Shown here piece by piece: positions 8,202 through 35,543 of a stretch of DNA of 35,543 nucleotides. The position numbers were made by a program, and so were the translations under genes. The stretch lies in IMG/VR virus record IMGVR_UViG_2582581022_000006. One strand, given 5' to 3'. How positions within the stretch are numbered: the first letter of the stretch is position 1; every line of letters starts with the position of its first letter. The notes under the pieces were generated by a model. That model made no database searches. It saw only the letters and a program-made list of their open reading frames with translations, and had not been told where the DNA came from. This DNA comes from a virus (Duplodnaviria; Heunggongvirae; Uroviricota; Caudoviricetes).

Positions 8202-9113
8202 TTATGCCTCCAGCCCGTTAATCTGTGGCGTCGGCTCAGTCAGCCATGAAGGCGCGGCATTGCCTGTTGGCTCATCCGGCAGGTCAAATGTGGAGCGCAG
8301 GCTACGCGCTGTGCTTTCCAGTTGACAGACCAGGCCTGCCATGAAGTCTCTGGGGGTATCAATCATGTTTTCAGCACAATATGCGCACAGCGTCTCAAAA
8401 GCGCTGGACAGTCGAACGGCGATAGCAGATTCCGCCTCAACCGCTAATGCTGTCACTTCCGCCCGCAGCTTCTTAACCTCTTCATCAGGCTCAGGCGGCT
8501 GAATACGGGATTTCTTCTCCAGTCTGGTGGAGAGTGAGTCTATTTTTTCATTTTTGTCAGCGAGTACGCGCTGTTGTGCTGCGTTGGTTTCGCGCGCTTC
8601 GCGCAGGGCCTGACGCAATTCACGTACTGACATGCGATCAACGTCGTCAAGCGTCAGGCCGGCAACTGTGCCGCCGTCGGCCAGTTCGGCAAGCTCTTCG
8701 TCGTCTTCTGTCATTAATTCGAAAAGTTTGGCTTTTCCCAAATGTGCCAACGTTGGCACATTTGGTTTCAGCGCCGGGGATAAGTATTTTGTCGATGCTT
8801 GCATCATTCTCACAGATGTCCGGTATGCCAGCCCCAACTCACTTTCAAGAATCTTTATAAACTCCCCGTGTGGTTCATTTTCCTTAAGGATTATCAGCCG
8901 CTTACCTGCCTCCAGCATGGCCTCAGCGCTCTGTGCCATATAAAAGCGTGCCTCATGGACAACACGATCGCGCTCATAGGGCAGACCATCGCCGAACTGT
9001 TGCATGATTTCCATGCGATGCTGTGTCATGGCGTTTAGACTGACATTGAGATCATCCGACAGCGGTACCTCGACGTTCAGTTCAGTGCTAACCGGTGATT
9101 TGGTGCGTCCCAT
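8202..9113 (-). CDS. Conserved early protein of unknown function (303 aa)
   Basis: Long ORF immediately upstream of the transposase; central coiled-coil-like region. Confidence 0.5.
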   Translation of the reverse strand: MGRTKSPVSTELNVEVPLSDDLNVSLNAMTQHRMEIMQQFGDGLPYERDRVVHEARFYMAQSAEAMLEAGKRLIILKENEPHGEFIKILESELGLAYRTSVRMMQASTKYLSPALKPNVPTLAHLGKAKLFELMTEDDEELAELADGGTVAGLTLDDVDRMSVRELRQALREARETNAAQQRVLADKNEKIDSLSTRLEKKSRIQPPEPDEEVKKLRAEVTALAVEAESAIAVRLSSAFETLCAYCAENMIDTPRDFMAGLVCQLESTARSLRSTFDLPDEPTGNAAPSWLTEPTPQINGLEA

Positions 9114-9123
9114 TGATTACTCC

Positions 9124-9432
9124 TTACAAACGACTACCTGAAATAACACGTTGGTTGATTTCGTTAATGCGATCCTGTGCACGTGCCATCTCGTTACTGT
9201 GGGCCATGGCGATCTGCAGCAACTGGATGCCTGGTGCGAAACGCCCGTTTTCTAGTTTCAGAGCCAACCCTTCTTCAATGAGCGTGTTAAGTGCCCGGTT
9301 GATGTTTGCCGGTGATTCGTGCAGTGCAACCGCTAGTTCCCCGTTAGAAACACCGTTCAAAGCGTGGCCACGTAAGGCCTTAAGAACGCGCAAAATACGG
9401 GTACCTGAGCTTGATGTATTTGGTTTATTCAT
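9124..9432 (-). CDS. Putative winged-helix DNA-binding protein (102 aa)
   Basis: HTH-like segment ILRVLKALRGHALNGVSNGELAVAL; second gene of the early operon. Confidence 0.4.
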   Translation of the reverse strand: MNKPNTSSSGTRILRVLKALRGHALNGVSNGELAVALHESPANINRALNTLIEEGLALKLENGRFAPGIQLLQIAMAHSNEMARAQDRINEINQRVISGSRL

Positions 9433-9653
9433 GACGCCTCCTTAAGGATACCGGGGGTAACTTCTTTACCTATTGCAACCGATAGATCTCGCAAAATCCG
9501 ATAAGTCAAACGACCGCGAGGTAGTTCACTTTTACCAGCCCAGCGACTGACTGCCTGGGTGACTGTTCGTGGTTCATAGCCCGCGTTAAGCGCGAACTGG
9601 CGCAAGCTACTGCCTCGTTCAACCAGCCGTGCCCGAACTTGTTGTTTGTTCAT
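9429..9653 (-). CDS. Ner/Cro-like early regulator
   Basis: ~75 aa HTH protein (SLRQFALNAGYEPRTVTQAV); first gene of the leftward early operon, divergent from the repressor. ATG at 9653; the track's 9659 start is an in-frame GTG. Confidence 0.55.
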   Translation of the reverse strand: MNKQQVRARLVERGSSLRQFALNAGYEPRTVTQAVSRWAGKSELPRGRLTYRILRDLSVAIGKEVTPGILKEAS

Positions 9654-9741
9654 ATGCACCGTGTTCCTGTTAGGTTATGATGTACTCTATTGGGTCTATT
9701 GTACACACCCAAATGAGTGTGTCAAATTGAGATATGTTCAA
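9654..9741. promoter_or_regulatory. Divergent immunity control region (operators and promoters)
   Basis: 88-bp AT-rich gap between divergent regulator genes, containing nested inverted repeats (TGTACTC...GAGTACA; ACACAC...GTGTGT). Confidence 0.55.
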
Positions 9742-10149
9742 ATGAGTACAAAAGAGAGATTGCGTGAAGTGATGGATGCTAATGGCATGACAATAAAGGC
9801 ATTATCTAACTTATCAAAAATTCCATATCGCTCACTTCAAAACTATTTGCGTGGAGAGAGAGAACCAAACGCAGAGGCTCTTGTTGCGCTAAGCACCCAT
9901 TTGGGTGTATCGATCGATTGGCTACTTACCGGTAAAGAACATATTCCATCTAAAGAAATTGTTGCTGTACCAACACAACATCAATTCAGCCCGTCAGACC
10001 TTAAAATGCTTGAACTTCTAAACCAGTTAGATCCTGAGGTTCGGCGAGATCTCATGCGAGGCGCTGAAGAAAAACAGCGTGTGATTGAGATGGAAAAACA
10101 ACTGAAGGAATTATCCGCAACGATTGAGCGGTTAAAAAATGTGGGTTAA
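9742..10149 (+). CDS. Prophage repressor, HTH XRE family, no peptidase domain
   Basis: 136 aa from the ATG at 9742. N-terminal HTH (MTIKALSNLSKIPYRSLQNYLRGEREPNAEALVALSTHLGVSIDWLL). The track's 9646 start is a TTG extension overlapping the Ner-like gene. Confidence 0.7.
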   Translation: MSTKERLREVMDANGMTIKALSNLSKIPYRSLQNYLRGEREPNAEALVALSTHLGVSIDWLLTGKEHIPSKEIVAVPTQHQFSPSDLKMLELLNQLDPEVRRDLMRGAEEKQRVIEMEKQLKELSATIERLKNVG

Positions 10150-10219
10150 TGTGTTCCTAACGAGAACATATAGCAGAAATTATTTGCCATTAAGCAATAA
10201 AAAATAAGGTGGATAGCTA

Positions 10220-11227
10220 ATGTCTGAGCAGACCATTGAAGTTAAACACGTTGTAGTTCACATTTTAGACAAACAACAAAATGGAGACGCTTCTGAGAGA
10301 TTGAGTCCTGAAGAAGGTCTAGTTACTGAAGCCTCCCAGCGCCTTATAAACGATATTTGTGCAAAATATGCAGGACGCACAGGTAAAGGTTATGGCTATT
10401 TTGAAGGCGATACGGATAACTATCCTATGGAACGAATGGCTGGGGACTTTCTCGAAGGTGTTGATGATTTCTACCAAAGTTCCTGCCGAATGATGCATCA
10501 CCTGACGGAACGTTCTCAGCGAGAAAACATGGCTACTGGTGGTTATGTTCTTTTTGCAAATATCGTGATAGGACACAATGAACACCTGTTGATAGCTATT
10601 GTAAGCGCTACCATTGGATCCACTGTCACAGATGATTTTAACATCCAAGATAGTACCTATCTTGATATTGCTAAGCTGCGTATGGCTGGGCGCATTGACT
10701 TAACCGCGTGGGAAAGTGGCGCAGAGCGCTATATCAGTTTTCTTAAGGGGCAAGGTAATGTTTCAAACTATTTTAAACAGTTCCTCGGCTGTAATGATGT
10801 CTTAATCGCCAAACGAGAGTCTGAAAAGTTACGTGACGTTTTAAAAGCATTTGCGGCAGAGAAAGGACTTGACGGCGCTGAAAAAGATGCATTTCTTAAG
10901 AGTGCGTTTGAACACTTACATGCACTAAGTAAGGCTGGTGAACCACTTAGTCTTGAAACCCTTGTTAATGCCATTTGGCCCCAGGCTCCCGAGGAGTTAT
11001 CTGGTAAACTTGCTGCTGAAGAGTTGGAGTTATCGGATGGCTTCGTTCCTGATGGTCGAGTCATTCGGGCTCTGGTATCTTTTAAAGGCAAGTCTAAATA
11101 TTGGGAACTTAAGTTTGACCGGGAAGGGAAAACTGAAGGCTATATTGATTATGATCCGGAAACAAATATTATCACCCTACGTAATGTACCTGAAGAATTT
11201 AGGGAAATGTGGATGACTGAGGTTTAA
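10220..11227 (+). CDS. YejK/NdpA-like nucleoid-associated-domain protein (NA37 family)
   Basis: 335 aa, same length as E. coli YejK. Central block TYLDIAKLRMAGRIDLTAWESGAERYISFLKGQ...FKQFLGCND aligns with the YejK core [20 protein letters not shown]...YLTFLKGR...FMDFLG. RBS AAGGTGG 7 nt upstream; AT-rich. Confidence 0.65.
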   Translation: MSEQTIEVKHVVVHILDKQQNGDASERLSPEEGLVTEASQRLINDICAKYAGRTGKGYGYFEGDTDNYPMERMAGDFLEGVDDFYQSSCRMMHHLTERSQRENMATGGYVLFANIVIGHNEHLLIAIVSATIGSTVTDDFNIQDSTYLDIAKLRMAGRIDLTAWESGAERYISFLKGQGNVSNYFKQFLGCNDVLIAKRESEKLRDVLKAFAAEKGLDGAEKDAFLKSAFEHLHALSKAGEPLSLETLVNAIWPQAPEELSGKLAAEELELSDGFVPDGRVIRALVSFKGKSKYWELKFDREGKTEGYIDYDPETNIITLRNVPEEFREMWMTEV

Positions 11228-11229
11228 TC

Positions 11230-12435
11230 GTGGCGATTTCATTTGAGATGCTGACAGATCTGTATCGTCGTATGGAATTCCAAGAGGGGTTTCGTGTCGG
11301 TTCGCTGTTGCTCTTAGATCAGTCCGATTGTGATCTGGTTGATACTTTGCTTGATGATCCTCGTGAATATGGTCTTTCTATTGATACAGGCACTATCGCT
11401 CCAGGTAACACGATCATCCTACGTGTGACGTCACCACGGAGTGGACTGGGACTTGTGTTTTCCACCCATGAAAAATTGCTAAATGCTCCAAAGCATCAGT
11501 GCCTTGAGCCAGCTAATTACTTCATCCTAGAAACAAAGTTTCGTAATGATGATGAAGATATCCCCGTTTTCATCAGCAACTACCGGAAGATTCTCGAGTT
11601 CGTTAACCTGCTAAAAGAGGCCGCGGCCTACTTTGATAACTCAACTTGTCAGTTAGTTTTTCTGAAAAAAGAAGTTATCAAGCTATTACCGCACTTCGCT
11701 GCAGAAAATGTACAAAATTTGCAAAGAGAGTATCTTGATAACCTTATAGCTTGTTTCAATGATGATACCCATAAGGATCAGAAGCTAGATATTCTGATTG
11801 AAAGTATCCAAGCAGTTAGTGATGGAATTGATTCACCTCTAGTATTCGCTTATTTACTGGACAATATTCAGCGTCTGCATGAAAAGTTTCTGAAAGGGTA
11901 TCGTATCTACTCTTCTGGATTCTCTTATGACAAAGTAATGGATCAACTGCGTGCTGCAAAAGTCGAAGAAATGGGTAAAATCCACAAAGCGTTTTCAGAT
12001 ATCCAGAACCATATACTTGGCATTCCTGTTGCCTCTGTTATCGTAGCTACCCAATTCAAAGTGGCTACGAAATGGTCAGGCCAAGGGATAACAAACACAA
12101 TAATTCTTCTGGGATGCATTTTTGCTGCAACGTTAATCTGGCTGGCACTTTCGAACCAGATGCAATCTATAAAGGCCTTAGGCGAAGAAATTGAATACAA
12201 AGAAAAACAGATTAATAAGGAATATTCCTTCATTAAAGATGACGTGGCTGGTGTATTTAGCAGTATTTCTGCGCGACTAGACACGCAGAAACGTACGTTC
12301 TGGATTATACGTGGTGTTCTAGTTATGGGAATTATTACCGCTATCACTGTTTATTTTTGGTACACAAAACCAGCCCTTGACTTCATGCAGTACTTGATTC
12401 ACTGCATGAAGTCTTACTATTCGGTCAAAAGTTGA
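11230..12435 (+). CDS. Hypothetical protein with two C-terminal transmembrane helices (candidate membrane effector)
   Basis: 401 aa; GTG start 2 nt after the upstream stop. Hydrophobic helices ITNTIILLGCIFAATLIWLAL and FWIIRGVLVMGIITAITVYFWY; soluble N-terminal ~280 aa with no recognised motif; AT-rich. Confidence 0.6.
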   Translation: MAISFEMLTDLYRRMEFQEGFRVGSLLLLDQSDCDLVDTLLDDPREYGLSIDTGTIAPGNTIILRVTSPRSGLGLVFSTHEKLLNAPKHQCLEPANYFILETKFRNDDEDIPVFISNYRKILEFVNLLKEAAAYFDNSTCQLVFLKKEVIKLLPHFAAENVQNLQREYLDNLIACFNDDTHKDQKLDILIESIQAVSDGIDSPLVFAYLLDNIQRLHEKFLKGYRIYSSGFSYDKVMDQLRAAKVEEMGKIHKAFSDIQNHILGIPVASVIVATQFKVATKWSGQGITNTIILLGCIFAATLIWLALSNQMQSIKALGEEIEYKEKQINKEYSFIKDDVAGVFSSISARLDTQKRTFWIIRGVLVMGIITAITVYFWYTKPALDFMQYLIHCMKSYYSVKS

Positions 12436-13195
12436 GGATAATGAGTTCCTTCTTGCGACTGGATTTGCCAGTGATCTTGAGGTTGTAGCTGATATCAACC
12501 GACTGAATATTTAGACCGTTGAATGCCTGCCGCATTTCCGGGATATCGTTCACCGATATAATCATCTTCCCTTTGATCCTGCGTGCTAAATCTGCCATAT
12601 GATCATAATTTTCTAGTCCGAACTCCACACCATAACCTTCCGTTCCCCAGTATGGAGGGTCACAGTAGAACAACGTATGCGGGCGATCATATCGTTCTAT
12701 GCACTGTTGCCAGTCCATGTGTTCTATGACCGTTCTGGAAAGCCGCAGGTGTGCCGCTGACAGTTCTTCTTCAATACGCAGCAGGTTGAAGCGTGGCGGG
12801 GATATGGTGGAGGTACCAAAGCTGTGCTCCGCCACCTTGCCTCCAAACGCCTGCTTCTGAAGGTAGTAGAACCGTGCTGCACGCTGGATATCCGTCAGTG
12901 TTTCTTCCGGGGTGATCTGCAGCCATTTGTAGATCTGCCGGCTGACCAGCGCCCATTTGAACTGGCGTACAAATTCTTCCAGATGATGTTTTACCACCCG
13001 ATACAGGTTCACCAGTTCACCGTTGATATCATTAATGACTTCGATCTTGCCGGGTACCTTAAGAAAATAGAGCGCTGCTGCCCCACAAAACGGCTCCACA
13101 TAACATTCATGCGCCGGAAACAGCGGCAGGATGTGTTTTGCAAGGCGGCGTTTGCCACCAATCCATGGAACGATGGGTAATGTCTGCATTTTCAT
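12425..13195 (-). CDS. DNA adenine methyltransferase, Dam family
   Basis: 256 aa; motif I FCGAAA and catalytic DPPY present. Convergent with the preceding gene, 11-bp 3' overlap. Confidence 0.85.
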   Translation of the reverse strand: MKMQTLPIVPWIGGKRRLAKHILPLFPAHECYVEPFCGAAALYFLKVPGKIEVINDINGELVNLYRVVKHHLEEFVRQFKWALVSRQIYKWLQITPEETLTDIQRAARFYYLQKQAFGGKVAEHSFGTSTISPPRFNLLRIEEELSAAHLRLSRTVIEHMDWQQCIERYDRPHTLFYCDPPYWGTEGYGVEFGLENYDHMADLARRIKGKMIISVNDIPEMRQAFNGLNIQSVDISYNLKITGKSSRKKELIILNF

Positions 13196-13442
13196 AATCT
13201 GTAAGCCTTTTACAATTATAAAAAATATGGCAGGCTAGTCTGGTCTCGCGAGACTGACTGAACCTCGGTCGGCTCACAGCGCATTCCTGTGGGGCGATGG
13301 CCAGCCCGGTGTTCGGGTACCGGGCTGGTCGTTCTTTCAAAGTCATCATGCAGTGCACGTTTACATCTTCACTATTAACGCTGTTTAAAATCCGTATCCC
13401 GCCACATTTGTGATGCTGTCTCCACCAAACGAGGAGACACAC
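13196..13442. promoter_or_regulatory. Intergenic control region between the methylase gene and the lysis operon
   Basis: Perfect 12-bp palindrome GTCTCGCGAGAC (13243-13254) and a 9-bp inverted repeat with 8-nt loop (13302-13327). RBS GAGGAG precedes the holin start. Confidence 0.4.
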
Positions 13443-34900: not shown

Positions 34901-35543
34901 ATGGGAAACCTGAATGAAACAGAAAAGTGGGAAGAAAATATCTATCAACTGGAGACATCAGATCCGGTTCTGGGTGGTGCAGACGGGATATCAAATCGAG
35001 CCCCCCGGCAACTGGCAAACAGGACGAAATGGCTGAAGAAGAAAACGGAGGAAGCCGCACAGTCACTGGCTGAACACGTACGTTCCCGTAACCACCCGGA
35101 CGCGACACTGACAGCTAAGGGGTTCACCCAACTGAGCAGTGCCACCAACAGCACCTCTGAAACGCTGGCCGCCACACCAAAAGCGGTCAAGGCTGCATAC
35201 GACCTGGCAGCCGGCAAGGCGCCTGCCAGCCACACTCACCCGTGGAGTCAGATAACGGGAGTGCCTGCGGCTTCACTGACGGCAAAAGGCACCGTACAAC
35301 TGAGCAGCGCCACGGACAGTCAATCAGAAACTGAGGCTGCCACGCCGAAGGCGGTCAAGGCTGCATACGACCTTGCAGCCGGCAAGGCGCCCGTCAGCCA
35401 CACTCACCCGTGGAGTCAGATAACGGGAGTGCCTGCTGCCTCGCTGACGGCAAAAGGCACCGTACAACTGAGCAGCGCCACGGACAGTCAATCAGAAACT
35501 GAGGCTGCCACGCCGAAGGCGGTCAAGGCTGCATACGACCTTG
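34901..35543 (+). CDS. Tail fiber protein, 3'-truncated by the window edge
   Basis: Frame from ATG 34901 stays open to 35543. Contains tandem 56-aa repeats LTAKG..QLSSAT..SETEAATPKAVKAAYDLAAGKAP.SHTHPWSQITGVPAAS. Confidence 0.7.
   Translation, partial: MGNLNETEKWEENIYQLETSDPVLGGADGISNRAPRQLANRTKWLKKKTEEAAQSLAEHVRSRNHPDATLTAKGFTQLSSATNSTSETLAATPKAVKAAYDLAAGKAPASHTHPWSQITGVPAASLTAKGTVQLSSATDSQSETEAATPKAVKAAYDLAAGKAPVSHTHPWSQITGVPAASLTAKGTVQLSSATDSQSETEAATPKAVKAAYDL
35108..35543 (+). repeat. Tandem in-frame 168-bp repeats inside the tail fiber gene (at least 2.6 copies)
   Basis: Units start at 35108, 35276 and 35444; copies 2 and 3 nearly identical, copy 1 diverged. Confidence 0.85.

Follow-up and report, generated by a model that had tools for sequence, protein, structure and literature searches.

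A prophage-carried gene pair of a YejK-like nucleoid protein and a membrane protein as a candidate anti-phage system distantly related to DS-1

The IMG/VR record IMGVR_UViG_2582581022_000006 of the Caudoviricetes comprises 35,543 nucleotides, a stretch that we call the window, and is 100% identical to a region of Escherichia coli strain RIVM_C036569 that holds a Mu-like (transposable) prophage. Directly downstream of the repressor-like gene of this prophage, and on the same strand, lie two genes, termed gene 1 and gene 2 below, of which the first codes for a protein of the YejK/NdpA family of nucleoid-associated proteins and the second for a membrane protein (Table 1). Their coordinates and their coupling, which a first-pass annotation of the same DNA had described, are confirmed: the two reading frames are separated by only 2 nucleotides, and a GAGG stands 7 nucleotides ahead of the GTG start codon of gene 2. 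We consider it likely that this pair is a two-gene anti-phage system carried by the prophage, in which a YejK-like nucleoid protein works with a membrane effector, and that it is a distant sister of the DS-1 system with the architecture of type II PANGU. The evidence comes from sequence profiles, structure models and comparative genomics of both gene families.

Table 1. Coordinates of the gene pair, its parts and its immediate setting in the window.
Feature	Position	Strand	Basis
Gene 1, YejK/NdpA-family (NA37) protein, 335 residues, ATG start; proposed sensor	10220-11227	+	Open reading frame (ORF) and profile matches
Gene 2, DS-1B-like membrane protein, 401 residues, GTG start; proposed effector	11230-12435	+	ORF and profile matches
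Gene 2, N-terminal alpha/beta domain, residues 1-212	11230-11865	+	AlphaFold2 (AF2) model; acidic
Gene 2, long juxtamembrane helix, residues 213-275	11866-12054	+	AF2 model
Gene 2, transmembrane segment 1, residues 285-310	12082-12159	+	Kyte-Doolittle up to 2.33; within model helix 284-331
Gene 2, transmembrane segment 2, residues 356-378	12295-12363	+	Kyte-Doolittle 1.95; within model helix 333-378
Variable cargo cassette with the pair	10170-12443	+	Loss of homology to related Mu-like prophages (blastn)
Repressor-like helix-turn-helix gene, 135 residues	9742-10149	+	Pfam HTH_3, E 2e-11; Phage_CI_repr, E 3e-6

Gene 1 matches the Pfam family NA37 (PF04245) with 272 bits (gathering cut-off 24.6; E 1e-80), residues 12-327 aligning with positions 1-324 of the 325 of the profile, and it also matches phrog_3767, a family annotated as 'nucleoid associated protein'. 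It further aligns over its full length with the solved E. coli YejK (PDB 9be2; E 7e-30; PMC11229321), with which it shares the two-domain fold, both dimerisation arms and the residues of both dimer interfaces (Y140, F285, G287, F296 and P320). However, its score against the equivalog model of the housekeeping YejK (NF001557) is 186.2 bits, below the cut-off of 341, from which we conclude that gene 1 is a phage-borne paralogue and not the chromosomal yejK. Unlike YejK, gene 1 invariably comes with a membrane partner.

This partner, gene 2, belongs to phrog_5023 (E 6e-143), has no Pfam family and has no sequence relative in the PDB. The family to which it belongs is large, with 1,274 representatives recovered at E <= 1e-3 in a scan of 1.84 billion representatives (50% identity clusters). 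In the AF2 model the predicted local distance difference test (pLDDT) score is 82 overall and mostly 85-94 in the N-terminal domain. Residues 1-265 have a net charge of -12 and an isoelectric point of 5.0, and the C-terminal part is basic; across 36 family members sampled the charge of residues 1-212 has a median of -9 and ranges from -18 to +2. The N-terminal domain is a candidate docking domain for gene 1, possibly akin to a 'DNA mimic'. The juxtamembrane helix that follows it carries the most conserved motif of the family, GY..F.SGFSYDK..DQLR.AKVEEMGKIHK.FSDIQNQILGIPVATVIVATQ, and the invariant or near-invariant columns of the family are G223, Y224, F231, S232, Y233, K250, D257, I258, Q259, P266 and A268. 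Hydrophobicity, computed as Kyte-Doolittle means over 19 residues, picks out the two transmembrane segments of Table 1, and two strongly hydrophobic segments are found in 33 of the 36 members. A third hydrophobic segment (residues 262-282), placed just after the signature motif, is weaker and highly conserved, and the model holds a further helix at residues 380-400. Thus, two more proposals of the first-pass annotation stand, namely that the first protein is YejK/NdpA-like and that the second has a soluble part followed by two transmembrane helices. A Foldseek search of the gene 2 model against the PDB gave no significant match, and the fold searches returned generic helical matches, such as ClyA, CorA/Mrs2 and designed bundles. 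A CorA/Mrs2-like channel was rejected: the layout is alike, CorA/Mrs2 having a cytoplasmic alpha/beta domain, a stalk helix and two C-terminal transmembrane helices that a short GMN loop connects, but the loop, the motif and the root-mean-square deviation do not fit.

Both genes are homologous to the components of a validated defence system, DS-1, and on this homology rests our reading of the pair as an anti-phage system. DS-1 is clone D390 of the DefensePredictor study (Science 2026, PMC13092281) and consists of DS-1A (WP_000355468.1), a protein of 391 residues with a zinc-ribbon and an NA37 domain, followed after 2 nucleotides by DS-1B (WP_000150292.1), a protein of 404 residues with a hydrophobic C-terminus. 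Expressed from its native promoter in MG1655, it lowers the plating of Bas1 by 7.6 logs, of Bas26 by 2.7, of Bas3 and of T3 by 1.7 and of T5 by 1.0 (PMC13092281). The NCBIfam models built for the two components, DS1_1 (NF053868, 'nucleoid-associated anti-phage protein') and DS1_2 (NF053869, 'anti-phage protein'), match gene 1 with 63.7 bits and gene 2 with 75.9 bits, respectively, and each of the 36 gene-2 relatives sampled matches DS1_2 (best E-value 2.4e-27). In BLASTP comparisons with DS-1A and DS-1B the window proteins align collinearly at 23% identity, with E-values of 8e-9 for gene 1 and 6e-10 for gene 2 (302 residues), and in hhalign the gene-2 family profile aligns with DS-1B over 270 columns at 95% probability. 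The order of the genes is also the same, an NA37 protein preceding a protein of about 400 residues with C-terminal hydrophobic helices, as is the gap of 2 nucleotides between them. The hydrophobic peaks of DS-1B are weaker than those of gene 2 (maximum 1.56), and DS-1 also differs in having no match in cultured phage records. Divergent pairs that occupy the same slot in other Mu-like viral contigs match both the gene-2 family and DS-1B, so that the families form a continuum. The RefSeq identifiers of the window pair (WP_000003711 and WP_001007985) are not among the rows in the part of the DefensePredictor tables that was searched; the same part includes a predicted defence gene, WP_077474557 (323 residues), that resembles gene 1 by eye alone.

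The second system that bears on the pair is PANGU, in which a YejK-like nucleoid protein is combined with an effector (Li et al., bioRxiv 10.64898/2026.04.06.716658, April 2026). In its type II the nucleoid protein is Pag2A, and the partner, Pag2B, joins an acidic N-terminal domain that mimics DNA to a transmembrane domain at its C-terminus; both genes are needed, and the phenotype is abortive infection. In the PANGU-Ecu system, a Pag2A fusion to green fluorescent protein departs from the nucleoid upon T4 infection, and the acidic domain of Pag2B binds Pag2A with a dissociation constant of 19 nM. T4 escapes by inactivation of denA, which codes for the nuclease that starts the breakdown of host DNA, and this bypasses both PANGU types (10.64898/2026.04.06.716658). 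The window pair is like type II PANGU in being a bicistronic operon of E. coli that codes for a YejK-like nucleoid protein and a transmembrane partner with an acidic N-terminal domain, and the logic proposed for both is that of a DNA-bound sensor and a membrane effector. In contrast, the PANGU operons were chosen for their linkage to defence islands, whereas the window pair is prophage cargo beside a repressor. The first-pass annotation had proposed an exclusion or abortive-infection module, and the homology to DS-1 together with the type II PANGU architecture argues for such a role. It had also recognised no named defence system in this pairing; on that point it is superseded, as DS-1 and the NCBIfam models DS1_1 and DS1_2 already cover the kind.

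Seen from gene 2, the association of the two genes is obligate. A search with gene 2, taking one genome per species, yielded 74 loci from Alpha-, Beta-, Gamma- and Deltaproteobacteria, and in 70 of these gene 2 is immediately preceded by an NA37 gene of the same orientation; the remaining four are one contig end and three truncated fragments. Likewise, among viral contigs in IMG/VR the arrangement of an NA37 gene followed by gene 2 is seen in 52 of 54, both exceptions being cut by contig ends. The spacing between the genes is tight, or the genes overlap, in every relative locus inspected, and over 118 pairs the identities of the two proteins to those of the window co-vary with r 0.97. Both genes are under strong purifying selection, the ratio of non-synonymous to synonymous substitution rates (dN/dS) being 0.04 for gene 1 and 0.07-0.09 for gene 2 at dS values of up to 1.4.

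On these grounds a mechanism can be outlined for the proposed defence role. In a lysogen the pair would, judging from its position, be transcribed together with the repressor, whose gene probably supplies the lysogenic promoter. The gene 1 dimer, for which the fold and the interface residues are at hand, would act as a clamp on chromosomal DNA. When a lytic invader degrades the chromosome, gene 1 would be freed and, by analogy with Pag2A and Pag2B, captured at the inner membrane by the acidic domain that forms the N-terminus of gene 2. The stalk helix and the two transmembrane helices of gene 2 would then damage membrane function, so that the infected cell no longer supports phage growth, an outcome amounting to abortive infection. 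In this scheme the phenotype, the relocalisation and the binding are carried over to the window subfamily from PANGU by analogy, and the presumed action of gene 2 on the membrane is our own extension. Neither Mu-like nor lambdoid phages are known to break down the chromosome of their host while they multiply; a sensor of host-DNA loss would therefore suit such carriers, since their own growth would not trigger it.

Several observations weigh against this interpretation. The scores against the DS-1 models are far under the equivalog cut-offs (63.7 against 330 bits for gene 1 and 75.9 against 315 for gene 2), and the zinc-ribbon of 40 residues with which DS-1A begins is missing from gene 1. In DS-1A the NA37 domain spans residues 42-382 after a CxxC...CxxC segment, whereas the NA37 match of gene 1 starts at residue 12. 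PADLOC 2023 holds no model for gene 1. The likeness to type II PANGU is one of architecture and not of compared sequences, and it is likewise from architecture that DS-1 and type II PANGU are probably of the same kind. The N-terminal domain of gene 2 is just moderately acidic, with its net charge of -12, and that of one family member is +2. The pairing was counted from the gene-2 side, the loci having been collected via gene 2, and in a promoter and terminator scan of positions 9300-13400 the counts did not exceed those of shuffled sequence. Finally, mutation of six pore residues of YejK (R173/R176/K177 and R276/R280/K284) weakened its DNA binding (PMC11229321), and gene 1 retains a single one of them (R280, as R283). 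It has other residues in place of the basic cluster R173/R176/K177 and has also lost R276 and K284, the five positions reading Q, gap, N, G and S, and the RVGRK loop of YejK is shortened to QGN. Gene 1 has other conserved basic residues, K176, K289, K291 and R301, so that it may still bind DNA.

The poor conservation of the pore residues and the different phage spectrum of DS-1 leave room for a defence system with a trigger or an outcome other than that of PANGU, and we regard this as rather unlikely. Gene 1 might, for example, directly sense incoming phage DNA or a phage protein, as the replacement of five of the six tested DNA-binding residues could suggest, and gene 2 might block DNA entry or bring about a non-lethal superinfection exclusion at the membrane, which would be compatible with the effector mechanism of Pag2B being unknown (10.64898/2026.04.06.716658). 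However, abortive infection and departure from the nucleoid are what has been reported for the type II system of like architecture, and the T4 denA escape mutants bypass both types of PANGU.

The distribution of the pair bears on a further question, namely whether it serves defence or the life cycle of its carrier. Homology by blastn with the related prophages of E. coli CFSAN051542 and of Klebsiella phage KP12 stops at 10169 and restarts at 12444, which defines the cargo cassette of Table 1; both relatives carry 615 base pairs (bp) in its place. The slot is empty in JJ1886, contains a single ORF of 175 residues in CFSAN051542 and KP12 (WP_001228474.1; locus L085, 2095-2622), and contains two overlapping unrelated ORFs of 297 and 145 residues in Ecol_448 (WP_016238310/11; locus L087, 1476-2766). 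These alternative ORFs, all annotated as 'hypothetical', have no PADLOC or NCBIfam match and could be candidate defence genes. The pair thus lies outside the conserved Mu-like backbone, as the first-pass annotation had held. Its remark that the block is AT-rich is likewise borne out, with a guanine-cytosine (GC) content of 0.412 in the cassette versus 0.555 in the rest of the prophage; as the repressor gene is equally AT-rich (0.414), the low-GC block consists of the repressor and the pair, not the pair alone. In complete E. coli genomes the pair is rare (19 of 5,426). It is found in lambdoid prophages of Salmonella, Citrobacter and Morganella, where it lies between the Q antiterminator and holin genes on either strand, and in Paraburkholderia it is located in a non-phage island beside an Mrr-type nuclease.

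We think it improbable that the pair serves the carrier phage itself, for instance as a phage nucleoid protein that organises the DNA of the prophage or of transposition, or by biasing the switch between lysis and lysogeny, with gene 2 as a membrane anchor. Such a role would agree with its place directly after the repressor, with a switch function of lambda RexA that is independent of RexB (PMC11077077), and with the finding that in many viral contigs of the Mu-like type the equivalent site is taken by very divergent versions of the pair (22-29% identity), which points to a long-standing link with transposable phages. However, most close relatives lack the pair and have an empty slot or unrelated genes there, other sites are used in lambdoid prophages and in the non-phage island, homologues sufficed for defence when cloned without any phage, and a sequence link to RexA or RexB was not found. 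Least probable is that a paralogue of YejK and a membrane ORF hitch-hiking with it are carried as a passenger that has no function or is in decay: a closely related prophage of Salmonella Typhi does keep a fragment of gene 1 with gene 2 lost, and truncated gene-2 fragments occur in Cupriavidus, but both window genes are intact, the dN/dS values are low, the pairing is kept across four classes of proteobacteria and the gene-2 family has its 1,274 representatives.

The first-pass annotation had likened the pair to lambda cI-rexA-rexB, and this comparison stands in part. RexA is a soluble, non-specific DNA binder and RexB an inner-membrane protein, together giving an exclusion or abortive phenotype (PMC11077077), and both pairs lie directly downstream of a repressor on the same strand. 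The resemblance extends to position and logic only: profile comparisons with RexA (0.2%) and RexB (1.5%) gave no similarity, there was no direct match to RexA, and RexB is a four-helix membrane protein of 144 residues without a cytoplasmic domain. It is nevertheless conceivable, though we give it little credence, that the window family, DS-1 and type II PANGU on the one hand and RexA-RexB on the other are two branches of one ancient design. In this design a ring- or clamp-like, non-specific DNA binder, with a core like that of CENP-N/L or RdgC, could by its release from DNA switch on a membrane channel; the failure to detect any RexA match or profile similarity counts against it. Were it true, Rex exclusion, whose trigger has escaped identification for about 70 years, might be set off by the loss of DNA binding by RexA, and the stalk helix and two-transmembrane module of gene 2 would be a new type of channel gated by a nucleoid protein. 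We also considered Kiwa, another combination of a membrane protein and a soluble partner, as the PADLOC model for KwaA matches residues 262-394 of gene 2 (21 bits, E 8e-5). This match was treated as noise from transmembrane composition, being confined to three of the 36 family members, and there is no KwaB-like (DUF4868) gene.

Around the pair, the leftward early operon of the prophage consists, by RefSeq annotation, of a Ner-like gene, a DDE transposase, a MuB-like ATPase, Gam and Mor, and is divergent from the repressor gene. The best promoter-like site of the scanned region lies at 9698-9725 on the minus strand (TTGACA, 16 nucleotides, TACAAT; 11 of 12 matches) and, as it faces left into the operon of the Ner-like gene and the transposase, is probably the early promoter. 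The same scan found no comparable site for the repressor or the pair, no terminator-like or otherwise usable site between the repressor gene and gene 1, and no terminator-like hairpin between gene 2 and the convergent Dam methylase gene. The 3' ends of these last two genes overlap by 11 nucleotides (12425-12435), and the cassette, which ends at 12443, takes in the final few codons of Dam. Between the Dam and holin genes, at 13346-13369, there is a second variable slot, with 24 bp in the window and a 961-bp insert in CFSAN051542 and KP12; the DUF2441 gene in this insert has no PADLOC or NCBIfam match. In RIVM_C036569 the neighbours of the prophage are hyfR and a truncated hycH-like gene. Positions from about 1 to 1630 of the window are host DNA, made up of the 3' portion of hyfR and of a HycH-annotated remnant of 63 bp without its N-terminus; from these remnants at the left end, the prophage, with the Mor gene first, was apparently inserted into the hyf operon. 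At the right end (about 35100-35543), direct repeats of about 180 nucleotides, near-identical as judged by eye, appear to encode repeated units of the form ...TAKGTVQLSSATDSQSETEAATPKAVKAAYDLAAGKAP.SHTHPWSQITGVPA..., typical of phage tail-fibre repeats, and the odd AT skew at this end of the window is due to them.

Among the relatives, the neighbourhood of the lambdoid-prophage copy in Citrobacter freundii (loci L078-L080, 13000-19155) is rich in defence genes and includes colicin-domain, HNH, SLFN/AlbA_2 and GmrSD-like genes, as well as a reverse transcriptase followed by an SMC/AAA ATPase. The S. Typhi genome CP029870.1 (locus L143) has a Mu-like prophage that is 97-99% identical to positions 8849-13264 of the window, from which deletion has removed the repressor, Dam and most of gene 2, gene 1 being left as a fragment of 198 residues. 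About 2,700 blocks of the assembly collection are indexed as holding this fragment, and the decayed copy is therefore widespread in the serovar.

As the kind to which the window pair would belong has already been described and validated, the pair is a further, candidate member of it. What it adds is a large candidate sister family, with the above number of representatives at 50% identity, to a kind of defence described in 2025-26. The conserved juxtamembrane helix and the two-transmembrane module of gene 2 offer concrete targets for mutagenesis of the effector step, and pairs annotated as a nucleoid-associated protein plus a hypothetical protein beside prophage repressors may be relabelled as candidate defence pairs. 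The main point added is that such pairs are carried beside prophage repressors: as cargo the module is typical of temperate phages, which the DefensePredictor and PANGU papers did not stress. This placement suggests that the lysogen is guarded by a device that senses destruction of the host genome and would not be triggered by its own carrier phage.

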